Assembly: GCA_050012255.1 (NCBI GenBank)
Contig: JBEKHN010000006.1
Span: 1 to 64,000 of the forward strand
Reading direction: 5' to 3'
From: Candidatus Bathyarchaeia archaeon
GTDB taxonomy: Archaea > Thermoproteota > Bathyarchaeia > Bathyarchaeales > Bathycorpusculaceae
DNA length: 64,000 nt
The notes under the pieces are model-generated. The model was not told the DNA's origin. It did not search any database and saw nothing but the letters and a program-made list of their open reading frames with translations. Made by a program: the position numbers and the translations under genes. Shown one piece after another: positions 17,407 to 35,339 of this stretch. How positions within the stretch are numbered: position 1 is the stretch's first letter; every line of letters begins with the position of its first letter.

Positions 17407-17411
17407 ACTGG

Positions 17412-17587
17412 TAGCGCGCATGCTTGTTCCGAAATTGGCTAAAAATGGTTTTTATTCTTCTTGTGGGGTTTGGGACACTTTCAGGTATCGTGCATGTCCA
17501 TGCCTTTTATGACAAGCAACTCTTCCCGAAATGCGAGAGCGGAATTAAAACCATTTTTGACCATTTTAGGAACACGCATGCGCGCTA
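17412..17587. mobile_element. 176-bp MITE-like unit with ~46-bp imperfect terminal inverted repeats
   Basis: TAGCGCGCATGCTTGTTCCGAAATTGGCTAAAAATGGTTTTTATTC ... GAATTAAAACCATTTTTGACCATTTTAGGAACACGCATGCGCGCTA. Confidence 0.7.
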
Positions 17588-17675
17588 AGCGTTGGTCATG
17601 AGGTGATACCTTAGATGAGCAGGAAAAAGATATCAGGAGGTATTTTCAACTGAATCAGCAGGGAGGGCGCTATGT

Positions 17676-20492: not shown

Positions 20493-20744
20493 TCTTGATT
20501 CTGGGTTTCAATCTTCCTTCCTTTTTGTTAATGTGATAATGTAATAACTCTTCTTATTTTAGAGTATTGATTTATGACCCACTCACTGCTGTGACACGAT
20601 GATGGCCCACGCTTATTTGAGCGCGCGCGCTACCTGGAAAAGAAGGGTGATCGGAGACCAAAGCCTCGAGCTGGAAGAAGGGCAGCCCGTAGAAAGTAAC
20701 CGAGGAGTTCCGTTGGTCTGTCCATTAGGGTAGCCGAGCAACGG

Positions 20745-20855
20745 AGCCGTATCGGACCGAAGAGACGGACCGTTATGGGACCGTGAGACGGACCGTTACT
20801 GGACCGTGAGAAAACCGATTAGAAAACCGAGGGCTGGTCCATATCGGAAACCGTG
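20745..20855. repeat. Phased ACCG / 23-bp tandem repeat cluster (iteron-like)
   Basis: GAGACGGACCGTTATGGGACCGT / GAGACGGACCGTTACTGGACCGT; ACCG roughly every 11-12 bp. Confidence 0.75.
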
Positions 20856-21174
20856 GTTAAAAGCCACTGTACGGAAAATCACGGTTCCAACTCGGCACCA
20901 TGCTCGGCTTCAGAGTGGTTCCAGCCTGTCGGGGATCTTCGGCCCTTGCCAGTGGGTTGCGACAGAGTGATGTAGAAGACTAGGGCTCCCCCCGGTATTT
21001 CTGGCGGGTTTCTGTGGTTCCTTAGCTGGTTCCTTATGGTTTTTTTGTTTTTTTCTCGGCGCGCCCATTGTTTCCATTAGCCAATACTAATAGCGAACAA
21101 ACTACGTAGTTTGTCTCCATTGTTTGATGGAATTGTAGCATTATATTTATTAAGCTCAATAGTACGTTCTGTTT

Positions 21175-21740
21175 TCGTACGTTGTGCTTAAAGCAACAAC
21201 GTACAACATTGGCGGGCGACAAAATAAGCCTTACCTAGACAAAAGCCGTCTAAAACGCTTTAAAAGACATAAAGCGTTTTTACCTAAAAGGCGTTTAAGC
21301 TGTGCGGGCAATTTCCGACTCTATTAACCCTTAAACGGTTAGGTTATTCCGAGAACACAAAAATAGCCACAAAATAGGCGTTTGCAGTCAAACAACTTAC
21401 GCGCATTTTAGGCGAAACTTGTGCATTGTCGGCGGATTCCAGCCCTAGCATAAGGTTAAAAGTTGCCTAGACTGTCGGAGAAAACCTCTTTATGGAGAGG
21501 GCGTTTAACGGTCTTACCTCTTGACAGAGAAACCAAATAAAACCGCTAAAATGTGGTTTCACGTCTAAAATAGACGCATAAGCGAAAAACAGTTAAGATT
21601 TAGGCTGTTTTTCAAATAGGCGTTTCCTAATTCGCTGATTTTGTCGAAAGACCGTTGAAGCAGAATAAAGCCTATAAAATTTGATTCTAATTCAGACAGA
21701 CGCTTCTCTAAGCCGTTGTCCACAGTAATCTAGGGGCTTC
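21175..21740 (+). other. Hairpin-rich non-coding region (candidate ncRNA or ssDNA structure)
   Basis: Inverted repeats 21177-85/21196-204, 21252-61/21271-80, 21584-94/21603-13; recurrent AGGCGTTT; TTTATTAA box at ~21146. Confidence 0.45.
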
Positions 21741-22111: not shown

Positions 22112-22582
22112 ATGCCAAAACCACGCCAAGCTCAAACGGAAGCCGTTACTGTTCCCGCAGAGGACAGGCTAGAACTGCTAGAGGGTTTTGTGAACCTCGT
22201 TTCTGAACGATGGGGCTATCTGACAGCTCGCAGGCTGACTCAGAAGGACATGAACGAGAAGACCGCAACCGAATCTAAGGCGGCACGTGAGATTTCGAAG
22301 GCTATTGGTGAGAACGTGGAGAAGCTCATCAAGACACCTTCACAGGAAATCGCTAAGGTAGTCGTTGCCAAACGTGAAGCTCTCAAAGATGCACGGACGA
22401 CTCTGAAGGATGCCCGCAAGCCGTTCAACGAGAAGATGACACCTCTAGCCAGCATTATCAAATACTGTGACAGCGTGGCTATTCCCGACTCTCTGAAGGA
22501 GTTAGGACACCCCGTTGTCCCACGTTTCAGCCTGTCCGAATGGGCGCAGAAGGCGGTAGAGCAGACCAAGAAAAAGGCGTAA
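22112..22582 (+). CDS. Hypothetical coiled-coil protein
   Basis: 156-aa ORF with AGGAG SD, followed by CCC-polyT. Confidence 0.7.
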   Translation: MPKPRQAQTEAVTVPAEDRLELLEGFVNLVSERWGYLTARRLTQKDMNEKTATESKAAREISKAIGENVEKLIKTPSQEIAKVVVAKREALKDARTTLKDARKPFNEKMTPLASIIKYCDSVAIPDSLKELGHPVVPRFSLSEWAQKAVEQTKKKA

Positions 22583-22624
22583 GCTCTGTTTCTTGGCAAA
22601 CCCCTTTTCCCCTTTTTTCTACTT

Positions 22625-23225
22625 GCTAGAGTCAGAGTGAGTAATCACCTGACGGCATAGAAAGGCTACCTCCACGAGCAAATATCCATTCAGACAGACT
22701 AAAGAGCTTGCAATAATGTGGGTTCTCTAAAAGCCTAGTTCCCAGCCATAACCTCGTATGCGTCACCTAATTAACCCGTTACTTGTTAATGGCTTCTGAT
22801 TAGATAGAGGACGTTGGGGTTATGACGGCTGGAGATAAACCCACGTCAAAGACTTGCGTCTATGCTGTTCGCCCTAAAGGTCTGTCTAGTGTTATGACCG
22901 CCGCCTGTATGGGAAACAGGCACCACCCCAATGTAGAACACTGGACAGGTAACCGACTAGGACACCAACCGACCTTAAAGCTAATGTTTTAAGGTGATGG
23001 TAGGGCTCTCTTTTAGAGGTGATTGGCGGGGAAGCCAGTGACAAAAGAGGGATAGCCTGTTGAAACACAAAACAGAAGCCTCTTTACGTTTTGCCGCATG
23101 CTTGTAAGAGCCACCCCCAAATTCATTGTCTTGCAAGCCCTCAATTTGAGTAGGCAAACGCAGGCAGCCATGCGAAGTGATTTGCACGGTAAGGAAAAGG
23201 GGCAGGGTTAGCGTAGACGCTACAA
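22625..23225 (+). ncRNA. Candidate ~600-nt structured RNA of unknown class
   Basis: Nested helices seen by eye: GNRA hairpin 22631-53; 22718-24/22838-44; 22742-55/22816-32; 22884-93/22937-46; further helices to ~23222; no plus-strand ORF. Confidence 0.6.
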
Positions 23226-23246
23226 TGCTTTCTGGGGTGAAATGAA

Positions 23247-23372
23247 ATGGGAATAATAAGCCCACAACAGCTGTATGACGACCCGAAGCTCTGGCTGTCG
23301 GTAGACCACCAATTCCACAGTGTGCTAGGGAAGCTGATGGAAAAACTGTTTCCCGATTGGTCGGGAAACTGA
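23247..23372 (+). CDS. Small hypothetical protein (41 aa)
   Basis: MGIISPQQLYDDPKLW... preceded by GGGGTG at 23234. Confidence 0.45.
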   Translation: MGIISPQQLYDDPKLWLSVDHQFHSVLGKLMEKLFPDWSGN

Positions 23373-23512
23373 ATGCCATCGGGTGCCATTGCCTACTGTG
23401 CGATGGTCAAGAGCTTGTTCCCTGCACAAGCGGAGATGGCAAGAAGGGCCTGATTACAGGCTGGGTTGAAAAACCAGAGAAATTGCTGAACATACGAGAT
23501 GTAACCAAATAG
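23357..23512 (+). CDS. Small Cys-containing hypothetical protein (51 aa)
   Basis: ...GCHCLLCDGQELVPC...; stop abuts the next array leader; start uncertain. Confidence 0.4.
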   Translation: MVGKLNAIGCHCLLCDGQELVPCTSGDGKKGLITGWVEKPEKLLNIRDVTK

Positions 23513-23542: not shown

Positions 23543-23695
23543 TTGAAGTATCAAGTGATTTTCACCGCAGGCTACGAAATTGATGCAAAGAACAAGAAAC
23601 AAGCCGAGGAAAAGGCGAAACTTGAGTTTGCCAAAGAATTGATAGAAGAAGGAGCAAAACGTTTTCTCGTAGACGTCATCCCGCTGAAGGGTTGA
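23543..23695 (+). CDS. Small hypothetical protein (50 aa, absent from ORF track)
   Basis: MKYQVIFTAGYEIDAKNKKQAEEKAK...; TTG after GGGGTG; TGA overlaps ligase ATG. Confidence 0.65.
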   Translation: MKYQVIFTAGYEIDAKNKKQAEEKAKLEFAKELIEEGAKRFLVDVIPLKG

Positions 23696-24693
23696 TGCAG
23701 ATGTATGTAAAGCCAATGCTGTGCCAAGAACTTGTAGTCAATGGAATACTTGAAAACAACGGACTTGACGGAGAAAAGGTGACTGCAGCATACAGGAAAG
23801 CCATAGCGGAAGCACTTCGAAAGCTAATGGCAAGAAAGTTCGTCTCCGAGAGGAAAGCTACCTGAATAGCCCTCAGATGGGACGGCACGAGAGTTCTTGT
23901 CATCAACGAAGACGGAACAATAATTCTGCAGAACCGCAACGGAATCATCTACACTATAAGGCTACCCGACATTGTAAAGCCGCTGAAAGCAATTCCTGGC
24001 AGGTGGAAGCTCGATGGCGAAGTAGTCTTCATAAGCCCTAAAACTGGGGAAGAAATGTTCACGCCCTGCCAACGCCGCTGCAGTACCCAGTATCCTGACC
24101 CATATCTTCGAGAGCAGTTTCCCGTCAAATTTGAGGTTTTCGACCTTTTAGAAGCTGGCGGATCCAATGTTGAACGGGAGCCCTACTATAAACGCAAGGA
24201 CAGGTTATACACGCTCTTGACGGTGAATACAGATGGCGACGTTGTAGAGTACGTGCCGTATGACAGCAACCTTCCAGAAGCATGGGAAGAAGCGGTCAAG
24301 CAAGACCGTGAAGGCTTAATCGTGAAACAACTCGAAAGCCCGTACGAAGAGGGCGACAGATCTTTCAACTGGCTCAAGGTAAAAAACTGGAGATTTGAAC
24401 GCTGCAATGTAGTCGGTTTTACAGCTGGCGAAAGAGCCCGCAGCCATTTCTTCGGCAGCCTTGTACTCGAGCAGAACGGCCAGTTTAGAGGATGCGCCGG
24501 CAGCGGGTTCAACGGGTGGGAACTGCGGCGTTTCAAAGACATGTTTTCAGATGCGCCAAGGGTGCCGAAGCCTTACAGTGATGAGCAAGTAGGCGAGCCC
24601 TATACAGCCGTCAAAGTCAACATTCAAGTTCTCGTGAAGTACTATCAAATCACAGAAAACAAAGTGTTTCGGTTCCCGATATTCATAGCCTAA
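23695..24693 (+). CDS. ATP-dependent DNA ligase (325 aa after removal of the 21-nt intron)
   Basis: KPML; motif I ERK[intron]WDGTR; LDGEVV; FEVFDLL; EGLIVK; WLKVK; OB-fold GSG...RFP. Confidence 0.9.
23856..23876 (+). other. Bulge-helix-bulge (BHB) intron, 21 nt, in ligase mRNA
   Basis: GAGG/CCTC 4-bp helix with AAA and AGA 3-nt bulges, inner GCTA/TAGC stem; in-frame TGA at 23863; excision restores AAA TGG. Confidence 0.82.
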
Positions 24694-25852: not shown

Positions 25853-26452
25853 TTGACATTATCCAGAGATATCAGCATCAGCGGAAACTCTAAGCAGATA
25901 GCGAAGGCAAAGAAGATTCTGAGCCCTATGCTGAATCGCCTTGAGACGCTGAACGTGGTGCAAGCAAGACTGAGTCTCCAGGACGCCATCGACGACAACA
26001 CTCTGTACGCATCTATTCTGTTCAGAGGACAGGTGGTGTGGGGCAGAAAAAGAATCACAAACAATCTCAAGCGCATAATCGCAAGAGGCCAGCTCTACGG
26101 GAACAAACAGGTCAAGTGGATGCGTGTGAACCCAAACATTTGCTTACCATCCGTGCCGCAAGATTTCAAGCCGATACTTTCCGAGTACTTCTATCAGTTC
26201 TTAACCATGTGCTGCGGCAGCAACCCGCATTACAGTCGCGCCGGCTGGATAGGCATCTACCCAACCTTAGCCGATCTGAAACGATTCTTCATGAAGAACG
26301 AGCACGGCAAGCAGGTGTCCGACTATGTCCCGGACTGGAAAGCAGACGCACAAAGAGTGGTGGAAGACATCGAACGCATGCTCTACCCCTTCCGAAGCTA
26401 CCTAAAAGCCAAAGAAAAAGAAGAAGCACGTCGACAACACCGCATACGTTGA
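25853..26452 (+). CDS. Hypothetical protein, paralogue A
   Basis: LSEYFYQFLTMCCGSNPHYSRAGW shared with the next gene. Confidence 0.75.
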   Translation: MTLSRDISISGNSKQIAKAKKILSPMLNRLETLNVVQARLSLQDAIDDNTLYASILFRGQVVWGRKRITNNLKRIIARGQLYGNKQVKWMRVNPNICLPSVPQDFKPILSEYFYQFLTMCCGSNPHYSRAGWIGIYPTLADLKRFFMKNEHGKQVSDYVPDWKADAQRVVEDIERMLYPFRSYLKAKEKEEARRQHRIR

Positions 26453-26486: not shown

Positions 26487-27080
26487 TTGGAGAAAACATT
26501 GCTCGGCGGTCCAGCGTCATTTCGAGATCACGCACGAATCCGGATCATAGGAAAAAAGGCTGACGTGGAAAAGGCCGAAACAGCATTAAAAGCTATTGCC
26601 GATTTACAGTCTCTTCCCGAGCCTAAGGCTCGCTTAGAGATCCAGAGGATAATTGAAGAACAGGATTTGAAGGCACACATATTATTTGACGGAAACACCG
26701 TTTGGAACACGAAACCTATTCTCGCAAATCTGAAGAGAATAATGGAGCACGGAACACTCTACAACGGAAAAAAACCAGCTTACGTTCCGATAGGCAGCAT
26801 GTTACGCATGCCAGTTGTTGGGGAATGCATACTCTCCGACTACTTCTACGATTTCCTGCACCTAGAATGCGGAAGCATAGCACACTACAGCAAGCAGGGC
26901 TGGGTGACCGAGTACCCGACTGTTGAGGATCTCAAAGCATTCTTTCAGAAAAACGAGTTCGGCAAAAGAGTCTTAGACAACATTCCAGGTTGGATGACTG
27001 ATGCCAAGAGAGTTGTCGAGGAGATTGAACAGATGCTGTTTCCGCTCCGGAGTTTCATTAAAAGCAAGCAGAACGCTTAA
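26487..27080 (+). CDS. Hypothetical protein, paralogue B
   Basis: LSDYFYDFLHLECGSIAHYSKQGW. Confidence 0.75.
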   Translation: MEKTLLGGPASFRDHARIRIIGKKADVEKAETALKAIADLQSLPEPKARLEIQRIIEEQDLKAHILFDGNTVWNTKPILANLKRIMEHGTLYNGKKPAYVPIGSMLRMPVVGECILSDYFYDFLHLECGSIAHYSKQGWVTEYPTVEDLKAFFQKNEFGKRVLDNIPGWMTDAKRVVEEIEQMLFPLRSFIKSKQNA

Positions 27081-30952: not shown

Positions 30953-31231
30953 TAGCGCGCTGCCTTGTCCCGAAATTGGTCTAAAATGGTCATAATTCCT
31001 ATTTTCGGGTTTAGGGACAGTTTTGAGGCATATATCTGTTTTTAGTCCTCCTCTGCGCTTTGACGTCCCAGACGGACTAGATGTAGCTTCAACAGCTTAT
31101 GGGAGAACTCTACTTCCATCGAGCTTTGATGGAACCCCGTGATTTGCCATCTTTCAACGCGGTCAAGATTACCCGTCAAACAAGCTCAAATCAAGCTCCA
31201 ATAGACAAAAGAAGAATAAAAACCATTTTTA
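30953..31231. repeat. Second, right-truncated copy of the MITE-like unit
   Basis: Left end TAGCGCGCTGCCTTGTCCCGAAATTGGTCTAAAATGG; 31211-31231 is the exact reverse complement of 17440-17460. Confidence 0.65.
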
Positions 31232-31724: not shown

Positions 31725-32485
31725 AAGAAGAGAAAAGCCTAAGCCATACAATAGAAAAGGCTCTAGTCAAGCTGAAAGAGGATGCAGTACGGTAAGCACT
31801 AGCATGACTTCGAAAATGAGGTGTCCTTTAGGTCTTATTTGAAGGCTTGAATAACTCTTGTTGAACACAAGGCAAAGAGAGGCTATGTATATTTACCATC
31901 ATTTTGGTGAATGTTGCTGAGTGTTCAATTAAAACAATGTAACTCTTCGAAAACTACCAGAGGGATGTCACTATTTCGAAATTCCCATCATTTTTCCATA
32001 CGAAAGAAGTGACCTACTTCTGGTCTTTCTCGAAATATTGTGGAAATCATGTTGAACACGTCCAACAATATAACCAAAGAAAAGAGGCGCATAGTAATGG
32101 GCAAATGCGAAAAGAGCCACGAAAAGAGTTTGTTTCTGAATTTGCAGTTTGATTGAGTCAATATAAAATCGGAAGATTTCGGAAAACTTTAATAGGATGT
32201 CCTGACACTACGAATTGAGGGGGGCAAGCAATAAGAGAGCGGGAAAGTGATGTGATGGATAGATTTCAGCCATTCTCGGTGGAAGCCAGCCGAGCCTATT
32301 CATCCTTCACCCCGAGAGATGCATAATCTAATATACGTTGGCTATTTCAACCTTGTGCCCCAAAACTGGTTCTAGTCAAACTGAAGCGCGCGCGCATCGC
32401 GGAGCCTTACACTGGGACCTTCAGCTTAACCCCCCACAGTTCGAGAAAGGCGGACACTCCAAGAAGGCCGAAAGCTGACGCGAGG

Positions 32486-32576
32486 CCTAAAATTGTCCCC
32501 AAATCACAAAAGACGATCGATCGAAAAGACGAATTAAGACCATTTTTAACCATTTTCGGAACGGGCATGCGCGCTA
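32486..32576 (-). repeat. Third copy of the MITE-like terminal repeat (inverted)
   Basis: GAATTAAGACCATTTTTAACCATTTTCGGAACGGGCATGCGCGCTA; supplies the TAG stop of the UvrD gene. Confidence 0.7.
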
Positions 32577-35339
32577 TTTCCGTGAGCATATCTTTTGCCA
32601 GTCACAGTAAACGCAATTCCTTGAGGGCTTGGGAGTAAAGGCGCGATCGATTATACGTGAGATTGCATGACTTGCTTCTTTTGTGGCTTTCTCAAGATGA
32701 AGAGGAGCAATCTTTACGTATTCTTTCTGACGCTTGTGCTTTCGGTCTAGATGGTGAATGCATGCGCGCTTAGGGTTCAGGCCTAGTGATCTGAGACAAG
32801 CAATGGCATAGAGCCTCAGCTGCAATTCATAGTCCTTCTTGTACAGATCGTCAGTTTCTTTCTCGGTTTTGAAATCTATGATTTCGACCTCCTTCACATT
32901 TCCTTTCTCATCGAGTTTTTTCAGAAGGTCGATTTGCCCTGTTATCAGAGCTTCGCCAAGGACGAGCTCGAATCTTTTTTCGGTTTCAAGCACCTTTGTG
33001 AAGTCTGTCTTGTTTACCATCACATAGTTCTTGATTACTCTCTTTCCAGCTTTTTTCAGGTTGTCGGTAATCTTGGTCGTTGCATATCTTAAGAAGAAGT
33101 ATTTGTCAAAAAGCCCGTCTATGCTCGGCTCATCAGGGATTTTCTTACTGGTAATGAAGTCTTTGTAGATGATGTTAAGTATGTTGTGGAGTCTCGTTCC
33201 ATATCCGAATGCTGGCGGGACGCCTGCTTGATATCCATAAATGTTTCTGAGTAGATAGTCGTAGCCACATCTTCTGTAGCAGTTAATGTCGCTGAAGGAA
33301 GTGGGGAATATGCTACCGCTGATTTTTCTTGCAGGATATCCTGAGCGTTTCCTTGTTATGACCGCGTTGTGAGAGAAATTGGCGCAATGTGCGAGTTCGC
33401 CCATGAAAGGATGCGGTTCGAAAGCCGCCGGGCGCTTGTATGGGGTTCCATCTTTCTTTTTTCGTTTTGCTGAGCCCGTTATGAAAAGGTATTTCATGGA
33501 CCTCGTTATCGCAGTGTAATAGACTCTTCTCTCATCTTCTATGTCGCCCTCATACTTAGCTACGTCATATAGTTTCTCATCGATCAGGGTTCCCCCGAAC
33601 GCTCTGTGTCTTTCCTTGACAAAGCTTGGAATGAAGACCACAGGAAATTCAAGGCCTTTTGCCCGGTGTATTGTTAGGACTTTGACCGCGTTTATGAGTG
33701 CAGGATCATTGTGGCTGGTGTCTGCGTAGCTGTGCTTGCCGTAACCTTCGACAAACCCGAAGAAGTATTTGACTTCTGAAGCGCGCAGTCTTATCCACAC
33801 AGATTCATAGTCTGCTATTGCGCGGCTCAGGATCGCTAGGTTGTAGTTGTAGACATCGCGAAATTCGAATCTGTCAGCCCCAAAAGCTTGGATTATCTCA
33901 TGGAAATATGGTTGCAGGCCATATGCAAGATAGCCTCGTTTGCCTGTAGCCATGATCTTGCGAACAGCTTTCTTCATTCTCCCGAGAATTCTGACAAAGC
34001 GTCGTGCGTCAGACTTAGGATATTCACGTTTTGGAAAGACGGTGGTATATTCTGTCATTAACTCTCTGCTGGTCACTGTGTTGTCTTCAAAGGACAGGTT
34101 GAACAGATATGCCAAGCACTTCAGACTCAGTACGACCTCAGGTCTATTGAACACTTCTTCGCCTATGTCGAGGACGCAGTCGATGCCTTCCTCATCTAAG
34201 CGTCTGACTATCTTGGCGGCTTCGTCTCGTTTTCGGGTCAGGATCGCAAAGTCACCATATGATAGGGAAAACGGTGTGCCCTTCTTATCGCAAAAATCAG
34301 TTCCAGAAAGTGCTCCGATTCTGTCGACTATGAATGAAAACTCGTCATCTTCGGTGTCAAAATGGGTGTAGAACAGGTCATCGTTTTGAGGCTTGTTGGC
34401 CTGCTTCTTGCTGGGTTTCATTTCTTTGCGAAGCCTTCGTTTGTTATGTCTAATGAAATTCTTTGCGCAATCGATGATCTGAGATGTGCTCCTGAAATTA
34501 TGGGGAATAGGTACCGTGATCACATTATGATAGTTCTTCGGGAAGTTGATGATGTTATCAACAGTGGATCCGCGCCAGTTGTATACGCATTGATCGTCGT
34601 CGCCGACCACGCAAAGACTCCTGCCCCCTTTGGAGATCAGTTTTATCAACTTCTCCTGAAGAGGGTCCACGTCTTGATATTCATCCACTATGAGGTGCTG
34701 TACCTTTTCATGAAGCCTCTTTCTAGCGTCTTTGCTTTTCTCAAGTAGATCCACAAGACGATATATCATCGAAGTGAAATCGAGAAATCTATCTCTGTCC
34801 AAGAATGCATCATATTCATTACAACATCTCCGGAAATCCTTGTTTGAGAGGTCACTGGGGTTGACGTTTTCCATTCGCAGAATGTCATAGCTGTTTGAGA
34901 ATTCGAGAATGGTGTGAAACTTGCCGCCATCTTCCAGTTGAGGAAGGTTGGAATAGTTGTAGCGACGTGGCATTGCGAGAAAGGCCACTCTTTTTGGTTC
35001 GTCAAGTACATCGTAGCCTCTGTAATGGGGCTCGAGCTCTTTGAGCATCTCAAAACAGAAGCTATGTATTGTCCCAACGTACATGTCCCCTAGATCAGCC
35101 TTACTCGGACATTCTCTATCAAGAATGGATCTTATACGCGCTTTCAGTTCTTCAGCTGCCTTTTCAGTGAAAGTGAATGCAACGATTGACGCTGGTTTTT
35201 CGCCTTTTTTTACTAGTTCGGCGATTCTACTTGAAACAACTTCGGTTTTTCCTGATCCTGCACATGCAATGACCTGCAGATTGCCGGATAGATTGTTGAC
35301 GGCCTTCTTTTGTTGCTTTGTGAAAGGGAATTTTGGCAA
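32574..35339 (-). CDS. UvrD/PcrA SF1 helicase fused to C-terminal PD-(D/E)XK nuclease with Cys cluster
   Basis: ACAGSGKT, VDEYQD, VGDDDQ, TIHRAKGLEF, GQIDL...IIDFKT, CVYCDWQKIC. Confidence 0.93.
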   Translation of the reverse strand: MPKFPFTKQQKKAVNNLSGNLQVIACAGSGKTEVVSSRIAELVKKGEKPASIVAFTFTEKAAEELKARIRSILDRECPSKADLGDMYVGTIHSFCFEMLKELEPHYRGYDVLDEPKRVAFLAMPRRYNYSNLPQLEDGGKFHTILEFSNSYDILRMENVNPSDLSNKDFRRCCNEYDAFLDRDRFLDFTSMIYRLVDLLEKSKDARKRLHEKVQHLIVDEYQDVDPLQEKLIKLISKGGRSLCVVGDDDQCVYNWRGSTVDNIINFPKNYHNVITVPIPHNFRSTSQIIDCAKNFIRHNKRRLRKEMKPSKKQANKPQNDDLFYTHFDTEDDEFSFIVDRIGALSGTDFCDKKGTPFSLSYGDFAILTRKRDEAAKIVRRLDEEGIDCVLDIGEEVFNRPEVVLSLKCLAYLFNLSFEDNTVTSRELMTEYTTVFPKREYPKSDARRFVRILGRMKKAVRKIMATGKRGYLAYGLQPYFHEIIQAFGADRFEFRDVYNYNLAILSRAIADYESVWIRLRASEVKYFFGFVEGYGKHSYADTSHNDPALINAVKVLTIHRAKGLEFPVVFIPSFVKERHRAFGGTLIDEKLYDVAKYEGDIEDERRVYYTAITRSMKYLFITGSAKRKKKDGTPYKRPAAFEPHPFMGELAHCANFSHNAVITRKRSGYPARKISGSIFPTSFSDINCYRRCGYDYLLRNIYGYQAGVPPAFGYGTRLHNILNIIYKDFITSKKIPDEPSIDGLFDKYFFLRYATTKITDNLKKAGKRVIKNYVMVNKTDFTKVLETEKRFELVLGEALITGQIDLLKKLDEKGNVKEVEIIDFKTEKETDDLYKKDYELQLRLYAIACLRSLGLNPKRACIHHLDRKHKRQKEYVKIAPLHLEKATKEASHAISRIIDRAFTPKPSRNCVYCDWQKICSRK

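Follow-up and report, generated by a model that had tools for sequence, protein, structure and literature searches.

Large, highly structured RNAs without an assigned function are rare and fall into a handful of bacterial classes. OLE RNA is embedded in an operon beside the gene of its protein partner, GOLLD and ROOL RNAs form RNA-only cages and are often carried by mobile elements or prophages, and HEARO or omega RNAs adjoin or surround an HNH-containing ORF on mobile elements. We know of no large structured RNA in archaea beyond rRNA, RNase P RNA and SRP RNA. In the available parts of two reports, the OLE RNA of Bacillota is about 600 nt long and forms a ribonucleoprotein with Oap proteins (PMC9723947, PMC12054373). 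The available part of a third describes homo-oligomeric structures of GOLLD and ROOL RNAs (PMC12286853).

The first 64,000 nucleotides of the Bathyarchaeia contig JBEKHN010000006.1, called the window here, were analyzed. Positions 22620–23225 almost certainly encode a genuine structured RNA of a new family. Like OLE RNA, it is a structured, putatively operon-embedded RNA of about 600 nt with many conserved single strands and unknown chemistry. However, it did not match the Rfam OLE model, it is archaeal and lies on a mobile element, and the protein encoded upstream, P156, had no family match and is no relative of the Oap proteins. GOLLD and ROOL are also very large, ornate RNAs of unknown function, but they are bacterial and their Rfam models did not match the archaeal RNA. 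The latter is found in tight linkage with a single protein gene and with the ribosome-binding site of the gene that follows. Phage group I introns with HNH ORFs share with it a pseudoknotted RNA of several hundred nt, a mobile element as carrier and HNH-like ORFs in loops, whereas the archaeal RNA lies between genes in every allele and no splice sites were identified. The HEARO/omega RNAs of IscB-type elements are likewise structured RNAs beside or around an HNH ORF on a mobile element, but here the HNH-like ORFs occurred in 2 of about 70 loci, encoded 135–141 aa without RuvC, and were accompanied by no HEARO match. No description of this RNA was found in full-text searches of article bodies or in passages of PMC10848311.

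The window opens inside an archaeal LSU rRNA, whose 3′ end it includes (1–311), and also contains one tRNA; these two were its sole Rfam matches at the gathering score. A plus-strand gene array extends from about 21744 to about 31700. The majority of its genes have no known family, and its members include a zinc-finger-like 108-aa protein, P156, an ATP-dependent DNA ligase, a methyltransferase-like protein and zinc-ribbon proteins. The RNA element lies between the P156 gene and the next small ORF (23247–23372). Related elements encode a tyrosine integrase, a 163-aa protein and the zinc-finger protein on the upstream side, and the ligase and a 257-aa protein on the downstream side. The integrase and the 163-aa protein were not found in the window's genome, and the window's element contains no recognizable replication gene. 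An empty site that would delimit the element was sought in same-genus genomes, where only short multi-copy repeats matched.

By DNA search the RNA element was single-copy in its own genome, and no copy was found in 60 related genomes or, by blastn, in a phage collection. A word-indexed search returned 69 homologues of P156, one of which is labelled as a Bathyarchaeia MAG protein. With an alignment of 26 P156 homologues as query, 111 related stretches were retrieved from metagenome contigs (80 of them were kept), together with three loci in Bathyarchaeia/Bathyarchaeota MAGs; neither IMG/VR nor the phage collection contained P156 relatives. In most loci, blastn with the window's stretch gave matches just 3′ of the P156 homologue at 65–97% identity. 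An nhmmer profile detected the RNA element in every distinct locus with enough sequence behind the P156 homologue: 78 of 78 for a minimum of 60 nt, 74 of 74 for 300 nt and 70 of 70 for 650 nt. Every match was on the plus strand, no RNA-less allele occurred among the 78 loci, and three copies lay on one 2.23-Mb contig. In Bathyarchaeia-like archaea, an integrase-type mobile element carries the RNA as a constant part.

Its length is about 0.62 kb in the window and 0.65–0.95 kb in relatives. When 71 distinct downstream stretches were aligned with MAFFT, occupancy was 0.85–0.99 over most of 22623–23240, lower inside the variable insert of helix H2, and below 0.4 after 23243. A motif scan of IMG/VR gave one match, which lay inside an unrelated coding gene and was not recognized by the RNA model. 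A covariance model of the 3′ sub-domain (R1) gave one weak match (E 6.8e-4) in 150 sampled genomes of the class.

A preliminary description, made from the letters of the window, had proposed a novel large non-coding RNA at 22625–23225. This proposal was borne out by its presence in all loci examined, by plus-strand covariation and by the absence of an Rfam family for the window and 20 homologues. The plus strand of this stretch folded at −202.7 kcal/mol, compared to −176.8 ± 9.4 for 20 dinucleotide shuffles (z −2.77), with 1 of the 20 shuffles equally good; the minus strand gave z −1.66. The folding energy was suggestive but did not decide the matter. For the comparative analysis, the window and 57 full-length homologues (58 sequences, alignment A2) were folded with RNAalifold on well-occupied columns, which gave a consensus of 145 pairs in 30 helices. 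In this consensus 89.0% of cells were paired, compared to 39–46% after the 3′ partner was slid by 1–3 columns; both-side changes were found in 99 of the 145 pairs and 1119 cells, compared to 165–283 cells in slid controls and 346 in shuffles; and none of 500 shuffles reached any measure, although these controls overstate the significance somewhat because pairs were counted on the very alignments that yielded the consensus and because the sequences share ancestry. The sub-domain 22869–23055 was realigned with 46 of the 58 sequences (alignment A3), leaving out five with a different 3′ domain and seven with long inserts. It was 92.3% paired compared to 36–46% in slid controls, with compensatory changes in 31 of 42 pairs. 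G-U or U-G cells numbered 896 and A-C or C-A cells 243; therefore, the plus strand is the folded strand. As evidence at the sequence level, the comparative data are decisive for an RNA.

The stretch had also been described as free of plus-strand ORFs, and it proved to be as described. Many stops occurred in all six frames of 22560–23300, no ORF was consistent across homologous stretches, and on the plus strand a single ORF (22822–22992, 56 aa) reached 30 aa with most of its length inside the element. Column variability by codon phase was 0.96/0.95/0.90 in the RNA and its 1/3 peak ranked 70 of 306, which indicates no 3-nt period. The P156 gene served as a control in a motif-anchored stretch, with phases of 0.43/0.36/1.15 and a 1/3 peak ranking 1 of 68. 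A protein-coding gene or pseudogene was rejected on the lack of a consistent ORF and of a third-position signal relative to this control.

The preliminary description could not match the RNA to RNase P, SRP, tRNA or an intron class, which agreed with the searches. Rfam 15 (4227 families) gave nothing at the gathering score for the RNA stretch. At E ≤ 10, 22400–23500 gave three chance matches of 13–18 bits, far under threshold, and at E ≤ 5, 20 homologous loci (54 kb) gave two unrelated chance matches outside the element. RNase P RNA did not match even at E ≤ 10. In RNase P RNA, the P4 pseudoknot joins a 5′ GGAAAG-type strand to a 3′ ACAGAA...-type strand, which GAAAGG and ACAGAA of the archaeal RNA resemble, but the strand after ACAGAA (23078–23085) pairs with 23196–23203 in a covarying helix and not with the 5′ GAAAGG; an RNase P-like RNA was rejected. 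A group II intron or retroelement RNA was rejected as no group II model matched; no reverse transcriptase domain was found in the window's neighbours or in representatives of 14 conserved neighbour-gene clusters of related loci. A simple k-mer scan of the genome found no CRISPR array and no CRISPR-DR family matched the RNA, and H1 as a CRISPR-repeat mimic was dropped on these grounds.

The RNA is predicted to comprise two domains, H1 and H2 followed by a closed multi-helix 3′ domain with a pseudoknot (Table 1).

Table 1. Features of the RNA element and its relatives. Coordinates refer to the window, or to the locus named.
Feature	Position	Strand	Remarks
P156 gene, 156 aa	22112..22582	+	always precedes the RNA
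C-rich/oligo-T tract	22603..22619	+	between P156 stop codon and RNA; conserved in homologues
H1, 5′ hairpin	22624..22657	+	13 pairs, 12 changed on both sides; about 97% of cells paired
Joining region GGCAUAGAAAGGCUACCUCC ... AGACAGACUAAAG	22658..22716	+	columns invariant or nearly so
H2, long stem	22717..22845	+	22717–22735 × 22827–22845; 16 pairs, 8 changed on both sides
Variable insert within H2	22736–22826	+	occupancy drops
Helix ATAACCTC/GGGGTTAT of the preliminary description			located in the variable insert
H2 3′ strand, 18-nt motif GGCUGGAGAUAAACCCAC	22827–22844	+	recombination point between modules
5′ strands of helices closing the 3′ domain	22854..22875	+	partners in 23204–23222 (helices 10–12)
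H3, long stem	22879..22954	+	inner stem 22903–08/22916–21
Pseudoknot, 5 bp	CCGCC 22898–22902 (H3 internal loop) × GGCGG 23025–23029 (H5 loop)	+	45 sequences
H4 hairpin	22963..23006	+	8 of 10 pairs compensatory
H5 hairpin, loop GAUUGGCGGGG	23008..23049	+	6 of 7 pairs compensatory
Conserved single strand ...AAACACAAAACAGAAG	23050..23077	+
H6 domain	23078..23203	+	closing helix 23078–85/23196–203; also 23087–96/23153–60
H6 apical hairpin	23100–09/23129–38	+	near-invariant loop CCACCCCCAA (23111–23120)
H7	23167–76/23181–90	+	inside H6 domain
3′ strands of domain-closing helices, or local AGCG-UAGA-CGCU hairpin	23204..23225	+	3′ end of conserved element
GGGGUG Shine-Dalgarno and ATG (23247) of next small ORF (23247–23372)	23234..23249	+	abuts the RNA
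Loop inserts	L043:4174–4558, L043:4747–5154; L066:5991–6416		two sites in L043, one site in L066
Ligase Lys-site inserts	L007–L011, L013, L016, L019, L026, L031, L040, L042, L080, L083
Second-site ligase inserts	L020, L028, L037, L053, L055, L057, L066, L067, L080

The CCC/poly-T tract that had been noticed ahead of the element was present and conserved in homologues. Other array genes are preceded by the same kind of C-rich/oligo-T tract, which serves either as punctuation between genes or as a weak archaeal terminator. The joining region after H1 contains an anti-SD-like ACCUCC (22668–22673). A helix between 22668–22672 and 23234–23238 was about 90% paired with little covariation, nearly all of its changes being one-sided. 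Most helices read by eye in the preliminary description were conserved with compensatory changes. These were GTCAG-A-GTGA/TCAC-CTGAC (22631–22653), GTGGGTT/AACCCAC (22718–24/22838–44), GTCTAGTGTT/AACACTGGAC with the inner GCCTGT/ACAGGC, ACCTTAAA/TTTAAGGT, CTCTTTT/AAAAGAG, and GCTTGTAAGA/TCTTGCAAGC. The CCAGCC/GGCTGG helix was not conserved, with 52.6% pairing at the control level. The same 52.6%, again at the control level, was found for the suggested pseudoknot or switch AGACAGAC/GTCTGTCT, and the alignment supported the 22898–22902 × 23025–23029 pseudoknot instead. The terminal AGCG/CGCU hairpin stood in part: it was 78% paired, but its arms can pair with 22854–22865 instead.

In the 3′ domain, helix 12 (22872–75 × 23204–07) was 95.5% paired with all four pairs changed on both sides. 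In A3, helix 2 of H3 had 12 pairs (10 compensatory, 98.9% paired) and helix 4 had 5 of 6 compensatory. The pseudoknot was 100% paired in its 45 sequences; one pair was C-G in 35 and U-A in 10, and another was C-G in 37 and U-G in 8. A mutual-information scan for further tertiary pairs gave mostly phylogenetic noise, the pseudoknot excepted. The block 23063–23082 had the highest identity to the window among 20-nt blocks (0.82). In the H6 domain (helices 23–30), compensatory changes were found in 10 of 11 pairs of helix 27 and 10 of 10 of helix 30, and alignment columns A512, C514, C515 and C517 were invariant.

The RNA was modular. In loci L083 and L022, the 97% identity to the window was confined to the part from 22826 on, and their P156 proteins were about 54% identical. 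About half of the homologues carried the 18-nt H2 3′ strand in duplicate; a T-run followed the first copy. The 18-nt motif GGCUGGAGAnAAGCCCAC was found twice in L026, L013, L016 and about 25 other loci, about 235–345 nt after the P156 stop. Its copies were separated by 62–218 nt that included a T-run and a hairpin of the AGCG..CGCU type. The window has a single copy of the 18-nt motif and no T-run. The duplication is either an attenuator-like alternative pairing or a leftover of recombination; covariation, from an alignment read by eye, appears to favour the second copy as the H2 partner. Five full-length homologues (L031, L039, L076, L033 and L068) had a different 3′ domain, and in L014 the RNA past H1 was replaced by a gene for a 712-aa OLD-like (AAA_15 + TOPRIM) ATPase/nuclease (L014:5794–7932), at a site that may be a cargo hotspot. 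Therefore, the 3′ domain is dispensable to the element.

Compactly folded functional RNAs tolerate inserts in peripheral loops. Here, inserts of about 385–440 nt closed by perfect stems were found in the loops of H3 and H6, with the flanking RNA kept. Their ORFs of 135–141 aa carried CxxC...HH...CxxCH motifs; the Pfam HNH match was sub-threshold (best E 0.0011), and the motif of the L066 ORF was recognized by eye only. Shorter inserts in L037, L053 and L055 shared borders with the L043 insert and may be remnants.

Transcript evidence came from three metatranscriptome runs of one study, through contigs of near relatives only, and these libraries may hold DNA. One 693-nt contig was colinear from inside P156 into the RNA (22282–22978), passing through the 22603–22619 tract. 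The two other runs covered only 22856–23115, with depths of about 37–39 in X2 and about 10 in X3. No joint was seen in these contigs, whose coverage is incomplete; neither this nor the parts of the stretch that lack contigs count as evidence. They hint at transcription and read-through, short of proof.

The preliminary description had found no Shine-Dalgarno sequence, which was right for the element itself; at its 3′ edge stands the GGGGTG belonging to the ORF that follows (23234–23239). The SD pattern was matched in 45 of 61 homologues, four of the 45 at an internal site, and in 41 of the 45 a start codon followed 2–15 nt past the match. Among the 16 non-matching rows, 13 had by eye a T or C after GGGGTG. 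The family of the downstream ORF differed from locus to locus, and the SD still abutted the RNA 3′ end. Both the CACCCC loop and the SD were invariant. The pairings that would mask the SD are nearly invariant G and C runs, so covariation cannot support masking.

P156 belongs to a family of 86 clusters at 50% identity in a profile search of 1.84 billion proteins. Its relatives were all stand-alone proteins of about 135–190 aa, except for fragments, some longer forms and two long but weak outliers, and they share a conserved C-terminal motif ...YCDSVAIPDSLKELGHP..PRFSLSEW. The AF2 model (pLDDT 75) displayed long coiled-coil-like helices. No family beyond noise was found in Pfam, PHROG, NCBIfam or PADLOC, and the structure search gave nothing at E ≤ 0.001, only coiled-coil look-alikes at E ≥ 0.09. 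An Atlas search with P156 and the 266-aa neighbour gave no usable lead.

The ATP-dependent DNA ligase gene (23692–24693) was split at the motif I catalytic Lys codon (ERK|WDGTR) by a 21-nt insert with an in-frame TGA (23857–23877). Inserts of 20–112 nt occurred at the same site in 14 other loci. All 15 fitted the archaeal hBHBh′ motif, whose central and inner helices showed compensatory changes, and removal of the insert restored ...ERKWDGTR..., as in the uninterrupted genes of L020, L021, L036 and L067 in the same scan. An RNA-library contig was colinear, that is unspliced, across the Lys site. These inserts fit putative bulge-helix-bulge (BHB) introns, which in protein genes are known from crenarchaeal cbf5 according to the available part of PMC2738675. 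A second ligase site (...FTPCQ|RRCATQ...) had frame-shifting inserts of 16–17 nt in nine loci. These showed a central helix of 4 bp (UGCC/GGCA), two bulges of 3 nt and a very small inner hairpin, but the outer helix was weak (2 of 4 pairs) and none of the nine passed the strict BHB filter; they are likely micro-introns.

For the function of the RNA, we favour an RNA that binds P156 over a cis-acting leader, and a leader over a ribozyme or intron-like RNA. The RNA would be transcribed by read-through from the P156 gene, within the plus-strand operon of the element, and would fold compactly, tolerating large inserts in peripheral loops. By analogy with OLE RNA and its neighbour-encoded proteins, it may then form a ribonucleoprotein with the coiled-coil P156. 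This proposal is tentative, though it falls only a little short of an even call; P156 has no recognizable RNA-binding fold, and its linkage to the RNA is possibly mere adjacency. C-rich anti-SD-like segments (22668–22673 or the loop 23111–23120) could mask the GGGGUG site in the folded or bound state, and assembly of the particle would gate translation of the variable downstream early genes. The two parts combined, a ribonucleoprotein that also gates downstream translation, are possible but doubtful. As the best explanation overall, a new-family RNA with this mechanism is about as apt to be right as wrong, a figure that compromises between identity and mechanism.

A purely cis-acting giant leader or intercistronic regulator, which would never be a separate molecule, could instead sense a ligand, a protein or temperature and control downstream translation or read-through by alternative pairings. 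We hold this to be conceivable, with doubt prevailing. The RNA fills the entire gap from the poly-T tract after P156 to the next SD, so there is no room for its own promoter or terminator. The anti-SD-like segments are conserved, the AGCG/CGCU hairpin and the long-range helices are alternative pairings, and the second H2 3′ strand with its T-run in about half of the homologues has an attenuator-like layout. However, the window itself lacks the duplicated motif and T-run, depth in two of the RNA runs was confined to the RNA and not its flanks (a weak hint), and the RNA has 620–950 nt, a pseudoknot and about 30 helices. We know of no leader or riboswitch of such size. The riboswitch models of Rfam matched neither 22400–23500 nor the 20 homologous loci. 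It is very unlikely that the stretch is a catalytic or self-processing RNA, such as a very divergent group I-like intron or other ribozyme, including an RNA excised and circularized by the archaeal splicing endonuclease. Homing-endonuclease genes sit in peripheral loops of group I introns, and the HNH-like ORFs here lie in hairpin-closed peripheral loops; size and pseudoknotted core fit as well, and the same element appears to use BHB introns in its ligase gene. Against this reading, no Rfam intron or ribozyme model matched the window or 20 homologues, the RNA interrupts no gene, RNA-less alleles were absent among the 78 loci, and the RNA contigs, incomplete in coverage, contained no joint. 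The group I intron core is a P3–P7 pseudoknot arrangement with a G-binding site. A group I intron was rejected because the RNA is intergenic (stop codon to next SD), is present in 78 of 78 loci and gave no Intron_gpI match, and its pseudoknot joins the H3 internal loop to the H5 loop, not P3/P7. Both borders were scanned for BHB motifs in 61 loci, and poly-U with AGGAAA-GGGG, found in about half of these loci, was all that emerged. This sole recurrent candidate consists of low-complexity U and purine runs, and the cut would remove the 3′ strands of covarying helices 10–12, separating them from their partners; BHB excision of the whole RNA found no support.

On a bolder reading, no large catalytic or architectural RNA peculiar to archaeal mobile elements had been found before this one, which would be a new ribozyme or an RNA machine with P156. 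It would act on element or host nucleic acids (processing, ligation, replication priming or counter-defence), and the conserved single strands and pseudoknot would form its active site; we think this unlikely. That the stretch works as DNA (an origin, or an attachment or recombination site) or is a decayed protein gene, its fold being incidental, is scarcely credible. The 22827–22844 motif is indeed a recombination breakpoint that is duplicated in many loci, and the window's element has no recognizable replication gene. However, compensatory changes that keep G-U pairs on one strand (896 vs 243 cells) fit RNA only, iteron-like repeats as a possible origin mark lie away from the RNA (21200–21650), and a decayed gene is contradicted by the lack of codon periodicity and of a conserved ORF.

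Whether bound by P156 or not, the RNA is a concrete target for cryo-EM, probing and biochemistry: about 145 of its pairs are supported, it has a pseudoknot, some 80 natural variants can serve structural studies, P156 is a candidate partner, and its genetic context in mobile elements of uncultivated Bathyarchaeia is defined. Archaeal mobile elements carry RNA machinery overlooked by protein-centred annotation, and the same elements also hold candidate BHB introns inside a protein gene.

Further observations concern the rest of the array and its surroundings. ORFs 25853–26452 (199 aa) and 26487–27080 (197 aa) are adjacent and fall in one protein cluster; they are thus tandem paralogues without a known function. 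A 1.2-kb ORF-poor stretch (20550–21740) lies at the array's left end; it is one that contains tandem 23-nt repeats with GGACCGT (20738–20807), short tandem 10-mers, at least four copies of AGGCGTTT (21289–21625) and several inverted repeats, and that may be a control or origin region. Short, partly palindromic repeats of about 130–280 nt at 17411–17590, 30953–31231 and 32395–32580 have many copies genome-wide and in same-genus genomes, and look like MITEs.
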